Sequence record: NC_010324.1
Reading direction: 5' to 3' (one strand)
Length of the DNA stretch: 64,000 bases
DNA from: Escherichia phage phiEco32
Positions 9,101 through 64,000 of this stretch are shown piece by piece. Position 1 is the first letter of the stretch. Every line of letters starts with the position of its first letter. Made by a program: the position numbers and the translations under genes. The notes below the pieces were generated by a model. That model worked only from the letters and a program-made list of their open reading frames with translations. It was not told the DNA's origin and made no database searches.

Positions 9101-9109
9101 TAATGTATA
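9101..9109 (+). promoter_or_regulatory. TAATGTATA motif (candidate phage-sigma-dependent promoter element)
   Basis: Exact 9-mer 33 nt upstream of the ATG at 9143, directly after a terminator; the same 9-mer recurs upstream of other genes. Confidence 0.45.
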
Positions 9110-22290: not shown

Positions 22291-23343
22291 ATGTCTTTAT
22301 TTGGAAAATCAGCTTCTAGCAAAACCACAGTGGCTCCTTCCTCTCAGGTTGATGCCCTGCTGAAGCAGATTGTTGCTAATGCTCAGAATATGCAGAACAA
22401 CGATCCGGGATTCATCTCCCAACAGCTGGCTGGGTTTAATGGCAACCAACAGGGTGCTCTGAATAACTTAGCAGCTTCTACGACTCAGAAGAAGTTAGCT
22501 GATATGTACACACCTCGTACACAGCAAGGGTTGGACCAACTAAACTCTCTTGCCCAGCAGTATCAGAATATTGTCAATGGTGGCGGTCTAACTGCTGATG
22601 GTGTTAATAACTTCAGTAAAGGATTGAATAACTCAGCTCTTGCTCAAGCGACTAGTAAGGCAGCTTCCAATGTATCTCTCGGAAATGGTTCTGATTCAGG
22701 TTCTCTCCGTAGAGCTGCTGCTCAAGGTGCTGCTCTGAACAGTGCTAATACAAACTTAGCTCGTACTATCAGTGGCAAGAATATGGGAATCAGTGCTCTT
22801 CAACAAGACCAAAACTTCCAGAGGGGCTTACTTGGTGCTCAGTCAGGATTGGCTGGACAGAATCTCAATCTTGGTGCTCAAGGTGTTCAGGCAACTCAAC
22901 AAGCTATCCAGAATCAACTCATGGCTGGTAACCTACAACAGCAACAAGCCCAAGCTCAAGCTGATATTAATTGGCAGAACGCTATTGGCTCTCAACAGTA
23001 TGGGTGGAATCAGCTTAACAACCAACTTAATGTATTAAATAGTGTAAGCCCAATGGCTGGGTACACGATTAAGAATGCTGCTCCGGGGGTTAATACTGGA
23101 CAACAGCTCCTAGGTGCTGGTATCACTGGATTAGGTATTGCAGGTCGTATGGGTGCTTTCTCTCCTAATCAACAGACTCAGAATGCTTGGAGTTCCTATA
23201 ACAACTCAGGTGGGCAATCTGGAATGGCTGGTCCTATGATTGGTGGTTCTAATCTTTCTCAACAGAAAGGTCAGTCTAACTGGTTATCCACAGCAGGTAG
23301 TAATATCTTAGGTGGTGTCTTAGGGGCATTTGGAGCAAACTAA
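22291..23343 (+). CDS. Q/N/G-rich low-complexity virion protein
   Basis: ORF track; SD AAGGAGG; Gly-rich hydrophobic C-terminus. Confidence 0.5.
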   Translation: MSLFGKSASSKTTVAPSSQVDALLKQIVANAQNMQNNDPGFISQQLAGFNGNQQGALNNLAASTTQKKLADMYTPRTQQGLDQLNSLAQQYQNIVNGGGLTADGVNNFSKGLNNSALAQATSKAASNVSLGNGSDSGSLRRAAAQGAALNSANTNLARTISGKNMGISALQQDQNFQRGLLGAQSGLAGQNLNLGAQGVQATQQAIQNQLMAGNLQQQQAQAQADINWQNAIGSQQYGWNQLNNQLNVLNSVSPMAGYTIKNAAPGVNTGQQLLGAGITGLGIAGRMGAFSPNQQTQNAWSSYNNSGGQSGMAGPMIGGSNLSQQKGQSNWLSTAGSNILGGVLGAFGAN

Positions 23344-23355
23344 AGGAGATTTGAT

Positions 23356-24324
23356 ATGGGACTTTTCGGAGGCGGGGGTAGTAAAACTACTTCCCAAATG
23401 ATTCGCCCTGAATACATTCAACAGTATATTGACCAGCTTAACCAGCAGATCGGTAATACTAGTTCAGGGGATTATGTTTATCGAGATAATGTAGGGTTTA
23501 ATAATAATCAGACAGAGGCACTTAACAACCTAGCACAATCTGGCGCTTTGGGCACTCTCTCACAGCAATACATGGATGCAGCAGGTCAAGGCTTGGGTTA
23601 TCTAGATAATGCCTATAAAGGCTATCAGAGCCTCTCTGGACAAGGTGGGATTACTGGAGAACAGATTGGTGCTCTCGCTGGTCAACTGTATGATGATGAC
23701 GCTGTGCAAGCAGCCATTACAGCTAATAATGAACAGGTTCAACAGAACTTGGCACGTAACGCTCTTCCTCAGTTAGCTCAACAGTTTGCTGGTCAACAAG
23801 GTTCAGGTGCTCGTATGGCTAAATCTTTTGCCCAAGGTGATGCTCTGAATCAGATGCAAGGCCAAGCAACAGATATTACCAATAGTGCCTATAACTCGGC
23901 TATTAGCCAAGCTGAAAGCATCCTCTCTGGTAATCGACAGAATCAGGCAGCTGCTCTCTCTGGTCTTTCTAATATTGGTTCTAACCTTTCTAACCTAGGT
24001 CAGCAGGGTGCTAATTTGTCTCAACAGCAAATAATGAATCAATGGAATGCAGGGTTGCAGCAACAACAGCAACAACAGAATGAATATGATAATGCCTACC
24101 AGAATGCTCAGAACGCAGCTAATTGGGGATGGCAAGATATCAACAACCAACTCGGTGCAGCAGGTGTACTTAACGGTGCTCTCGGACAAACTACAACTAC
24201 AAAACAATCTGGTGGTAGTGGTGGCTTCTTAGGTGGAGCTATGAGTGGTGCAGCAGCAGGCTCTGCATTTGGGCCTTGGGGTGCATTAGCTGGGGGTGTA
24301 ATCGGTGGGTTGGCTAGTACTTAA
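23356..24324 (+). CDS. Q/N/G-rich low-complexity virion protein (paralog-like of the preceding gene)
   Basis: ORF track; SD AAGGAGA; similar composition and Gly-rich C-terminus. Confidence 0.5.
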   Translation: MGLFGGGGSKTTSQMIRPEYIQQYIDQLNQQIGNTSSGDYVYRDNVGFNNNQTEALNNLAQSGALGTLSQQYMDAAGQGLGYLDNAYKGYQSLSGQGGITGEQIGALAGQLYDDDAVQAAITANNEQVQQNLARNALPQLAQQFAGQQGSGARMAKSFAQGDALNQMQGQATDITNSAYNSAISQAESILSGNRQNQAAALSGLSNIGSNLSNLGQQGANLSQQQIMNQWNAGLQQQQQQQNEYDNAYQNAQNAANWGWQDINNQLGAAGVLNGALGQTTTTKQSGGSGGFLGGAMSGAAAGSAFGPWGALAGGVIGGLAST

Positions 24325-36631: not shown

Positions 36632-36640
36632 TATACATTA
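36632..36640 (-). promoter_or_regulatory. TAATGTATA motif (minus orientation) upstream of the SSB gene
   Basis: Plus-strand tatacatta; ~60 nt upstream of the start at 36572; part of a near-palindrome with a plus-oriented TTATGTATA at 36622-36630. Confidence 0.4.
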
Positions 36641-41970: not shown

Positions 41971-42255
41971 TCAACCTTTCGGGAATGGCATTAAAAACTC
42001 TACAGCAGATTTGATTTCGTTATTGATTCGTGAATCACGGTAAGAGATAAACTTACCTTTGCTGTCACGTAACATCACATGGGTTCTGGCTGTTTTGTGA
42101 GGAAGCAAAGTGATACTGGTTGGTATAGTATCAATTCCTACAGAGCATGAATTAATAGTCTTACTCTCTACTAGCAGATAAGACCAAGTACGCGGTTTCT
42201 GCTCCGGACGGTTGGGGTATGTGTCTCGAATCTGTACCATAGCTAACTTATTCAT
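41971..42255 (-). CDS. hypothetical protein, paralog B of a tandem pair (C-terminus ...PFPKG)
   Basis: Shares ...KTARTxxxLRxxxGKFISY...E..A.E.L.PFPKG with the adjacent gene. Confidence 0.5.
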   Translation of the reverse strand: MNKLAMVQIRDTYPNRPEQKPRTWSYLLVESKTINSCSVGIDTIPTSITLLPHKTARTHVMLRDSKGKFISYRDSRINNEIKSAVEFLMPFPKG

Positions 42256-42256
42256 A

Positions 42257-42514
42257 TTAAACTCCTTTAGGGAATGGGATGAGGTTTTCTACTGCAACAC
42301 GATATTCTTTCTCTACATCTTTATTCTTATAAGAAATGAATTTCCCATCAGCTCCACGGAGGATTATATTAGTACGAGCTGTTTTTGCATTATGACCAAT
42401 CTGGTTTGCAATTAGGCTGATGTTGTGTTTGACATCATGGTTATTAGTGAATTTCCACTTAGCCAGACGGTTAGTCCAAACATCGATGATAGTTACGGTT
42501 TTTACAATAGACAT
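42257..42514 (-). CDS. hypothetical protein, paralog A of a tandem pair
   Basis: See paralog B. Confidence 0.5.
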   Translation of the reverse strand: MSIVKTVTIIDVWTNRLAKWKFTNNHDVKHNISLIANQIGHNAKTARTNIILRGADGKFISYKNKDVEKEYRVAVENLIPFPKGV

Positions 42515-62074: not shown

Positions 62075-62290
62075 CTAAAAATCACTTGATTTTACAAAAT
62101 CATCACTAAGGATTTCGTCAATTTCTTTGTTAGTCAAATCTTTCCTGAACCAACAACAAGGTACATCCACCCATTGACCAGAGTTATTTTCTACAGAGCA
62201 TCTATTGCCTGTCTTACTCTTGCACTTATAGGTCTTACCTTTGTCTAGACGATAGTGTATTCTATAAACGATCGACACAAGTGTTATCAT
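62075..62290 (-). CDS. small Cys-rich protein (71 aa)
   Basis: ORF track. Confidence 0.45.
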   Translation of the reverse strand: MITLVSIVYRIHYRLDKGKTYKCKSKTGNRCSVENNSGQWVDVPCCWFRKDLTNKEIDEILSDDFVKSSDF

Positions 62291-62754
62291 TACTCTACCC
62301 TAACTGAAGGACAGTATTTCTCTTTCTTGCTACGATACATCACAACAATCCAGTTTGAATCACGACGCTCTTTCTTACGTCGTTTCTTTTCAGCACGAGT
62401 TTCATATGTGCTAGTTCGGTGGTCACGGTATATTCCACGAAGTTCATAAAATGCCCAACCACCACCAAACACTACACCAGCCAAAGCAGCCAAAGATAAG
62501 GCACCAAGAGCAGGGGCAGTGAACCATGTCCACCAATTGAATGACAAAAAATTCTCATGTCCAAGGAAAGAGCCACCAATCATGGACAGTGCAGCGTATA
62601 CAACCCCTAACAGCAGCGTCAGTGCAATGAAGTGCATCACTGTACGCCAGAAGTATTCGCAAAAGTTAGTCATATTATCCCAATGAGAGTTGGGTAAACC
62701 TGACATGGTTTTGTTGAACTTATGCAACCATCCGTTCTTGTTAATCTTGATCAT
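62290..62754 (-). CDS. membrane protein (2-3 TM) with highly basic C-terminal tail
   Basis: Hydrophobic helices FIALTLLLGVVYAALSMIGG and APALGALSLAALAGVVFGGGWAF, then KKRRKKERR. Confidence 0.5.
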   Translation of the reverse strand: MIKINKNGWLHKFNKTMSGLPNSHWDNMTNFCEYFWRTVMHFIALTLLLGVVYAALSMIGGSFLGHENFLSFNWWTWFTAPALGALSLAALAGVVFGGGWAFYELRGIYRDHRTSTYETRAEKKRRKKERRDSNWIVVMYRSKKEKYCPSVRVE

Positions 62755-62987
62755 TACTCACCTTTCTTGGCACGATCTTTGGCAGTTTTGCCAGTGCGGA
62801 TGCGATGAGAAACGTTAACCAGAGTGCCACCATCAACTACGGTAACGCTCTTGTTTTTAGCCAGATCGAACACAGTTTTCTCCGTGCCACCCAAGCGAAT
62901 TTGCTTAGGTTCGCTGAAGGTTTGGGTTGATTTAGATTGGAACTGAAACGGTTGACGGATTGCATCAATTGCACTTACTTTAGACAT
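62754..62987 (-). CDS. hypothetical protein (77 aa)
   Basis: ORF track. Confidence 0.45.
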   Translation of the reverse strand: MSKVSAIDAIRQPFQFQSKSTQTFSEPKQIRLGGTEKTVFDLAKNKSVTVVDGGTLVNVSHRIRTGKTAKDRAKKGE

Positions 62988-63015
62988 AGTGGAAATTCCT
63001 TAAAAAGTTATGGCT

Positions 63016-63037
63016 GCGTAGAGGGAATTCCCTACGC
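63016..63037. repeat. near-perfect palindrome gcgtag(a)ggg-AATT-ccctacgc
   Basis: Centred on GGGAATTCCC; in a 231-bp intergenic region downstream (minus sense) of the three-paralog array. Confidence 0.45.
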
Positions 63038-63218
63038 AAATTGGGCCGCCTAAAAAGAGGCGTCATAGTACTAAAAGGAGGAGAGAAGAGGGCTTATTTA
63101 GCTACCTTTTTCTGTCCGTTTACGAACCAGATAATTGAACCATCAGGCTGTCGTTGACCGAAGCCTTTCTGGTTAATCATATCGTCATAAGAATATGCTT
63201 TACGTCTCATTTGTTTTC

Positions 63219-63473
63219 CTACGAAGTTAAGATGATTTCAGCCTTAATAAACTTCTCACCAACAACCATATCACCAGAGATGACACGTAGTTCTCCAGTG
63301 CCTAGGTTAACAGCTCCAGCAGGTTGACAACCCCTGCTTTTAGCTGTCATCATATAAACCTTTTGATTCTGGCACTCTTGGAGAGTGAACACATCTGACA
63401 TATTTAGATCTCTGACACGGAGGATTTTTTCCTCTTTGTCTTTAACTTTAATGTTAATAATGCTCATATGCAC
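63219..63473 (-). CDS. small protein, member 3 of a second tandem three-paralog array
   Basis: 84 aa; shares N-terminal MK(I)..KK.. and a V(N)L.TG.L central motif with the two neighbours. Confidence 0.5.
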   Translation of the reverse strand: MHMSIINIKVKDKEEKILRVRDLNMSDVFTLQECQNQKVYMMTAKSRGCQPAGAVNLGTGELRVISGDMVVGEKFIKAEIILTS

Positions 63474-63718
63474 TACTCCTGAACCACTGACATACGAATC
63501 ATTTCTACCTGATCGTCAAGACCTTTAACAGATAACATACCTGTGGAAAGGTTTACCACAGGAACCCAACCACTGGCTATACGGATGTTACCAGAAGCAT
63601 TTTCAACCCTCATGTAATATTGAGGAGAAGCACTTCCGTTCTGAACCACGAAAGGATTTCCAGGAATAATTGTTTCCAACTTTACCGTATTATCCTTTTT
63701 CTTTGGGATGATTTTCAT
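63473..63718 (-). CDS. small protein, member 2 of the second tandem array
   Basis: 81 aa; one-nucleotide start/stop overlaps with neighbours. Confidence 0.5.
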   Translation of the reverse strand: MKIIPKKKDNTVKLETIIPGNPFVVQNGSASPQYYMRVENASGNIRIASGWVPVVNLSTGMLSVKGLDDQVEMIRMSVVQE

Positions 63719-63966
63719 TATGTGTTATCCACCAAAAGTTCTGCCGACACAGGAATAACTCGACAATAAATAGAAGGTGCTGTTACATTGCCATCAGACA
63801 GACGAAGAGTGATTGATCTGTCAGAGTTGATAGTAACGTTTGGACTTGCAGACACAGACCCTTTGACATACAGGGTTGCATTGTCAGGAAACTTAAACAC
63901 AGCTCCGCTGGGAAGTGAGTTGAGATCAACTGTAGTCACTTCTTCTTTCTTGTGAGTAATCTTCAT
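63718..63966 (-). CDS. small protein, member 1 of the second tandem array
   Basis: 82 aa. Confidence 0.5.
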   Translation of the reverse strand: MKITHKKEEVTTVDLNSLPSGAVFKFPDNATLYVKGSVSASPNVTINSDRSITLRLSDGNVTAPSIYCRVIPVSAELLVDNT

Positions 63967-64000
63967 ATTATTTACCCTGAATAATAAGTTTAGATTCGAA

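Follow-up and report, generated by a model that had tools for sequence, protein, structure and literature searches.

A tandem array of small diverged paralogs in the early gene block of a phiEco32-like phage belongs to a large family of predicted SH3-like barrels

A tandem array of small genes lies at positions 63219-63966, on the minus strand, of a 64,000-nucleotide stretch of DNA from Escherichia phage phiEco32 (NC_010324.1; hereafter the window). The window is that of a Kuravirus, a phiEco32-like podophage of E. coli. Indeed, it is 86-98% identical to Kuravirus genomes, and a 2-kb query covering the array matched 93 phage records, nearly all of them Escherichia or Shigella Kuravirus (phiEco32-like, Gordonclarkvirinae), with the top DNA identities (95-98%) in SR02, PGN6866, and MN03; MN03 shares ~97% identity with the window. 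Phage-therapy work makes use of kuraviruses. A first reading made from the letters alone (the sequence-only reading) had described the array as three small paralogs in a row.

Three adjacent, co-oriented open reading frames (ORFs) of 81-84 amino acids (aa) are present, as had been described, and are called here w1 (63718-63966, 82 aa, matching phrog_7832 of the PHROGs collection), w2 (63473-63718, 81 aa, phrog_7431), and w3 (63219-63467, 82 aa, phrog_12612). The mechanically called w3 ORF extends to 63473 (63219-63473, 84 aa, with a GTG start at 63473). The ATG at 63467 is the more likely start, because a GGAG sequence lies 9 nucleotides (nt) upstream of it and because the annotation of the MN03 ortholog uses this ATG as well. 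The overlapping stop and start codons noted earlier are therefore found between w1 and w2 (1 nt, TAATG), and between w2 and w3 only if the GTG is used; with the ATG, a 5-nt spacer separates them. A further 8-nt spacer leads from w3 to the next gene. The N-termini are lysine-rich in all three proteins (lysine at 3-5 of the first 15 residues), and the central motif that had been noticed is also present, as VNLSTGML in w2, VNLGTGEL in w3, and LRLSDGNV in w1, that is, in the general form V/L-x-L-x-x-G.

The array contains a fourth member. Ten codons, FESKLIIQGK, followed by TAA, are read in frame from the first base of the minus strand (63968-64000), where the gene is cut by the window edge. The same ten residues form the C-terminus of a 76-aa protein of MN03 (locus L002 5505-5735), which is encoded immediately upstream of the w1 ortholog and scores as a family member in profile searches. 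Thus, the sequence-only reading was right about paralogs in tandem and wrong about their number. It had also taken the array for the most upstream part of the minus-strand module; the fourth paralog already lies beyond w1, and since the leftward module of MN03 continues for ~6 kb past the array, that apparent position is an artefact of the window edge. In annotated relatives, the array is embedded in a long leftward run of small "hypothetical protein" genes.

Pairwise comparison alone leaves room for the idea that the ORFs are unrelated and resemble each other by chance or composition. BLASTP among w1-w3 is marginal (E 0.013 and 0.02, with no match for w1/w3) and hhalign on subfamily alignments of three or four sequences gives P = 0.0012, 0.0036, and 0.065. 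Because both comparisons are too weak to decide, controlled profile tests were used instead. When each subfamily was left out of the profile in turn, each ORF scored 19-33 bits, as compared with 13-17 bits for the best control among 4,469 real ORFs and shuffles. A profile was also built from 35 metagenomic relatives from outside Kuravirus, none of which has a pairwise phmmer match with E < 1e-5 to any Kuravirus member. It recovers w1-w3 at 40-46 bits (42.7 for w1 and 40.5 for w3; E ~1e-12), and the next-best ORF of the window has an E value of 0.45. Moreover, a hidden Markov model (HMM) was started from six sequences and iterated against every ORF in the window and in the loci of relatives. 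The search converged on 48 ORFs, each of them in the early region and on its coding strand; it found no family member elsewhere in the 64-kb window.

The three ORFs match their PHROGs over the whole profile (E 1.5e-29 for phrog_7832, 3.6e-31 for phrog_7431, and 5.4e-42 for phrog_12612). These are three separate PHROGs, yet w1-w3 cross-match one another's profiles as well as the shared phrog_6570 and phrog_8365. The orthologs evolve under purifying selection, with ratios of nonsynonymous to synonymous substitution rates (dN/dS) of 0.08-0.32 overall, 0.08-0.19 for w1, and 0.15-0.32 for w3. The controlled profile tests, the cross-matches between PHROGs, the identical predicted fold described below, and dN/dS values well below 1 effectively refute a chance resemblance. 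Formal alignment thus does detect similarity among the ORFs, and the earlier proposal of a tandem array of small paralogs is upheld. From sequence comparison, we take the ORFs of the array to be real genes and genuine, old, and very diverged paralogs.

The family to which they belong is far larger than annotations suggest, even if the array itself is an ordinary tandem set of hypothetical phage genes. The early block of MN03 holds 11 members, of which four make up the array and the other seven lie upstream of it; together they account for ~9% of the coding sequences of this phage (CDS; 11 of ~124). SU10 has nine (SU10_096, 097, 098, 0102, 0107, and 0111-0114). An exhaustive profile search over 1.84 billion cluster representatives (cut-off E <= 1e-3) matched 1,829 of them. 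The top 150 relatives are overwhelmingly single-domain proteins of 68-90 aa, with the consensus MKI..K...v.f.dL..GDVF....yYMKt....naVNL.tG.l..f..d..V.pv.aeL.i. Two hits, P0064 (RCC1-like) and P0088 (an NHL propeller), were rejected as false positives produced by repeats; neither has a domain that is significant on its own.

In existing resources the family is scattered. End-to-end matches to w1-w3, with E from 1e-29 to 1e-42, are given by PHROGs 7832, 7431, and 12612 and the linked 6570, 8365, 16423, 9955, and 10911; however, this collection splits the superfamily into at least ten unrelated-looking families. Among 131 superfamily members compared with it, 116 match phrog_6570 and 106 match phrog_7832, and the PHROGs spanned, at least ten, are every one of "unknown function". 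Pfam, which includes several anti-defence families, gives no match for the three ORFs or the 131 members. PADLOC gives none for the family, NCBIfam gives scattered single chance matches only, and profile searches of the PDB reach a best E of at least 0.24. The literature on phiEco32, Kuravirus, and N4 gp21 yielded nothing specific on the paralogs or their function.

The gp21 protein of phage N4 (74 aa, EF056009 9155-9379) also belongs with the family. It is found with E 3e-15 by the non-Kuravirus profile and 1.7e-5 by the six-sequence Kuravirus seed, and it is recovered by structure in BFVD. BLAST limits it to 16 close N4 relatives. It differs from the array in being a single copy in the 25 kb examined and in lying among middle-region genes of a member of the Schitoviridae. 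On these profile matches, at least ten PHROGs, N4 gp21, and ~1,800 metagenomic clusters are joined here into one family.

Larger proteins containing the domain bear on how the paralogs may act together. Among the top 150 relatives, 14 or more consist of two fused domains, each individually significant, some relatives carry 5-7 domain copies per chain, and several proteins of 1.9-3.2 kaa (thousand amino acids) hold 1-3 clear copies. Inspection of three unrelated phage-like contigs also showed tandem pairs in two of them. Adjacent paralogs could therefore be imagined to form a hetero-oligomeric or multivalent complex, equivalent to one multi-barrel protein split into genes. The packing of the array, with its 1-nt overlap and its spacers of 5 and 8 nt, is tight enough for translational coupling, which fits the same idea. 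Nevertheless, an obligate complex would hardly be expected to tolerate an array composition that varies between strains (2-4 members, a truncated copy, swapped members), and N4 has a single copy; we consider such a complex unlikely.

The domain also occurs twice in association with SprT-like zincin proteases. In a chromosomal protein from a Tenacibaculum metagenome-assembled genome (P0057, L014 3583-5019), a SprT-like protease is fused to five basic copies of the domain, and in a phage contig (L012 10001-11559) two members lie directly upstream of a SprT-like gene. Because of this fusion and this neighbourhood, a SprT-like partner was sought in Kuravirus; no ORF of at least 90 aa with an HExxH motif is present in the window or in the early region of MN03.

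Structure prediction gives w1 and w2 one and the same fold. The AlphaFold2 model of w1, made from a 131-sequence alignment, has a mean predicted local distance difference test score (pLDDT) of 88.7 and a predicted template-modelling score (pTM) of 0.75 and is an all-beta, SH3-like barrel; that of w2, from a 26-sequence family alignment, is also all-beta (pLDDT 81.2, pTM 0.68). The predicted models have the five to six strands of an SH3-like small beta-barrel and superpose on known barrels of this type. A Foldseek search of BFVD retrieves uncharacterised proteins of the same size from many phages, including N4 gp21 and PaP3 ORF65, with template-modelling (TM) scores of 0.6-0.8. The proteins of the family are thus predicted to be soluble, single-domain small beta-barrels of ~75-85 aa. 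The conserved columns are M1, K2, I3, L18, G21, D22, V23, F24, Y33, M34, K35, V54, L56, G59, V70, A75, and L77. Conservation is confined to core hydrophobics and turn glycines, and the loops vary, most of all the one that lies between the YMK and VNL strands. Since only core positions are conserved and the loops are variable, non-enzymatic binding modules are the most likely function of these proteins.

What such modules would bind is the main point of dispute. The principal alternative to protein binding is that they are nucleic-acid-binding modules (KOW-, Tudor-, or L2-like) acting on host or phage DNA, on RNA, or on the ribosome. The barrels of translation proteins and of the KOW, Tudor, and PWWP classes, such as the C-terminal domain of ribosomal protein L2 and domain I of EF-P, do resemble the models, and the SprT link fits as well. 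A precedent is provided by MotB of phage T4, an early protein that binds DNA non-specifically, interacts with H-NS, and has an N-terminal KOW-like domain (PMC7827196). MotB shares several features with the proteins studied here: it is made early by its phage, part of it is predicted to fold as a translation-protein SH3-like domain, and homologs of known function are lacking (PMC7827196). However, it has two domains (KOW and OB), and it is likened to the family by predicted fold. Identity to the translation-protein barrels is 5-18%, a relation at the level of the fold only, and the family has its own motifs, GDVF, YMK, and VNL.TG, which set it apart from the KOW, Tudor, and PWWP classes. Among the three ORFs and the 131 members, Pfam KOW, Tudor, and PWWP models find zero matches at E up to 0.01-1.

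Charge also argues against nucleic-acid binding. The mean net charge of the family is -2.6, with 64% of the members negative and 4% at +3 or more, and the array members range from 0 to +2 (0 for w1 and for the fourth paralog of MN03, +2 for w2 and w3). The N-terminal strand is mildly basic across the family, and the conserved positions include no basic or aromatic surface residue. Judged by net charge, neither w1-w3 nor the family as a whole fits the strongly basic profile expected of general nucleic-acid binders of the Sso7d/Cren7-like or MotB-like kind. The charge of the family is not suggestive of strong DNA binding, and we hold the nucleic-acid alternative to be rather unlikely.

The position of the array in the genome points to early expression. 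For SU10, CDS 69-125 have been assigned to the early class, which is driven by sigma-70 promoters located ahead of CDS125 and in the CDS120-CDS121 interval (PMC4281155). The orthologs of the array, SU10_096-SU10_098, fall inside this interval, and the promoters lie ~8-10 kb upstream of the array position, beyond the window. Synteny with MN03 and WFI101126 agrees with this location in the early block. The early cluster of phiEco32 has been described as the genome region of greatest diversity and as made up of likely host-takeover genes (7-11/phiEco32 paper, PMC8948821). The array shares the features of this block, i.e., small genes of unknown function with the highest diversity between related phages. 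The published accounts of the block consulted here make no mention of a single paralogous family that comprises ~9% of the genes. The published consensus for promoters of the phiEco32 phage sigma factor gp36, TAATGTATA, has no match near the array. Elsewhere in the window, it matches perfectly at 9101, 26014, and 36704 on the plus strand and at 36632 and 42937 on the minus strand; when one mismatch is permitted, the overall number of matches does not exceed chance expectation.

Location also bears on a possible role internal to the phage, in the virion, in assembly, or as an accessory of replication, rather than in the manipulation of the host. N4 gp21 is encoded among middle and replication-region genes and not among the earliest ones, which would suit such a role. 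All Kuravirus copies, on the other hand, belong to the early block, which is far removed from the structural genes, and the nine SU10 members (CDS 96-98, 102, 107, and 111-114) are not among the 34 proteins detected in a phage preparation, a result that is uninformative on expression. Presence and absence between strains also argue against a core role, so that we find this explanation improbable.

Strain-to-strain variation was followed by counting records in the phage collection. At 90% identity or more, w1 is found in 16 records, w2 in 42, and w3 in 16, with discrete classes of lower identity also seen; a full-length fourth member occurs in just 24. Both flanks are more uniform. A 77-aa gene downstream of the array, used as a conserved-flank control (62754-62987, minus strand, phrog_6662), is at least 90% identical in 93 phage records by tblastn. 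The 103-aa double helix-turn-helix (HTH) regulator encoded on the other side is at least 95% identical in 66 records; a scan of viral contigs for this upstream regulator gave three loci only. From low array counts as against high flank counts, the array can be seen as a hypervariable island between conserved flanks. Across strains, its composition ranges from two to four members and includes a truncated copy and swapped members. In WFI101126, for example, a different member replaces the fourth paralog and an unrelated 70-aa ORF is inserted. The w1 ortholog of the same phage (L001 6013-6183) is shortened to 56 aa and is apparently a decaying copy.

We favor protein binding and counter-defence on the basis of where the genes lie, the predicted fold, the lack of catalytic residues, the charge, and the turnover of the array. 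In this interpretation, in which we have moderate confidence, the array consists of co-transcribed early accessory genes encoding non-enzymatic SH3-like binding modules that serve host takeover or counter-defence. Tandem duplication followed by deep divergence within a multigene family would have produced the array. Host sigma-70 early promoters would drive expression of its genes within the first few minutes of infection, and the paralogs would each bind their own host macromolecule, probably a protein. The repertoire would then be tuned between phage strains by duplication, allelic replacement, and gene loss.

Several points weigh against this interpretation. No experimental or homology-based evidence links the family to a target or a phenotype, the searches of Pfam, NCBIfam, PADLOC, and the PDB being empty, and the structures are predictions. 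The SprT-like fusion with its five basic copies and the SprT-like neighbour in a phage hint at DNA-linked roles instead. In addition, what is known to be expressed early is the gene block in phiEco32 and SU10, not these genes in this phage, and CDS 96-98 are missing from the proteomics of SU10 lysates.

A broader proposal, which is speculative, is that the family represents a widespread, unnamed "binder scaffold" of phages, an SH3-like barrel. Its variable loops would be diversified, through tandem duplication, allelic swapping, and fusion, into repertoires of inhibitors of host defence or housekeeping proteins. Kuraviruses are reported to be remarkably resistant to restriction-modification systems and have no known restriction inhibitors (PMC11990801); such a scaffold might help to explain the broad resistance to host immunity reported for the group.

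A single uncharacterised family makes up ~9% of the genes of MN03, all in the early host-takeover block, and the array is a hotspot of variation. The finding alone reveals no new mechanism. Unified as predicted SH3-like domains, the proteins form a defined target set for pull-downs, toxicity screens, and deletion phenotypes, and the family is a candidate for a new curated domain entry. The membership of N4 gp21 offers a handle on it in a model phage.

The genes around the array are of other kinds. Its downstream flank begins with a 38-aa gene (63094-63210, minus strand, phrog_14557), which is identical in WFI101126 and MN03, gives no match to the family HMM, and is not a member of the paralog family. 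Beyond the 77-aa gene, positions 62290-62754 (minus strand) encode a 154-aa membrane protein that matches phrog_944, in the "moron/host takeover" category. This gene occurs in some relatives (SR02, SU10) and not in MN03, a difference that accounts for the classes of 76-89% coverage in the DNA search. On the upstream side, the double-HTH protein is encoded in MN03 immediately next to the array (L002 5744-6055, a position beyond the window end). It has two HTH repeats, matches Sigma70_r4_2 with E 1.6e-7, and is annotated in some records as a transcriptional regulator.

A strong palindrome had been reported to follow the array. A hairpin with a stem of 10 base pairs is indeed found on the minus strand at 63014-63039; it does not follow directly, the 38-codon gene intervening, and it lies in the intergenic region before the 77-aa gene. 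Its RNA fold is UUGCGUAGGG-AAUUCC-CUCUACGCAG, with a GGGAATTCCC core; two of the pairs are G-U, and a small hairpin accompanies it upstream. The 116-nt intergenic region (62985-63100, minus strand) has a folding energy of -27.1 kcal/mol (z -2.56). The hairpin is invariant in WFI101126, in MN03, and in a third relative (L003), and it has no second copy in the window and no match in Rfam. As a canonical intrinsic terminator it was rejected: a terminator scan makes no call, because the U-run starts ~9 nt past the stem. Possible roles are stabilisation or processing of the transcript, weak termination, or sequestration of the ribosome-binding site of the next gene. In the same region, the GGAATTCCC sequence of the hairpin (63024-63032) recurs as GGAAATTCC (62991-62999) over the Shine-Dalgarno region of the next gene, and in the minimum free energy fold of 62985-63100 an upstream CCUCC stretch pairs with the AAGGA region. 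This repeat and this pairing could, on the predicted fold, form a translational control element.

Finally, the window contains two other sets of adjacent paralogs. A separate tandem pair on the minus strand (41971-42255 and 42257-42514; 94 and 85 aa; phmmer E 5e-12) shares the pattern KTARTxxxLRxxxGKFISY...AVExLxPFPKG and is unrelated to the barrel family. It is probably the array that the sequence-only reading counted as the first. On the plus strand, two larger ORFs of 350 and 322 aa (22291-23343 and 23356-24324) are also paralogous, with a phmmer E of 2e-13.
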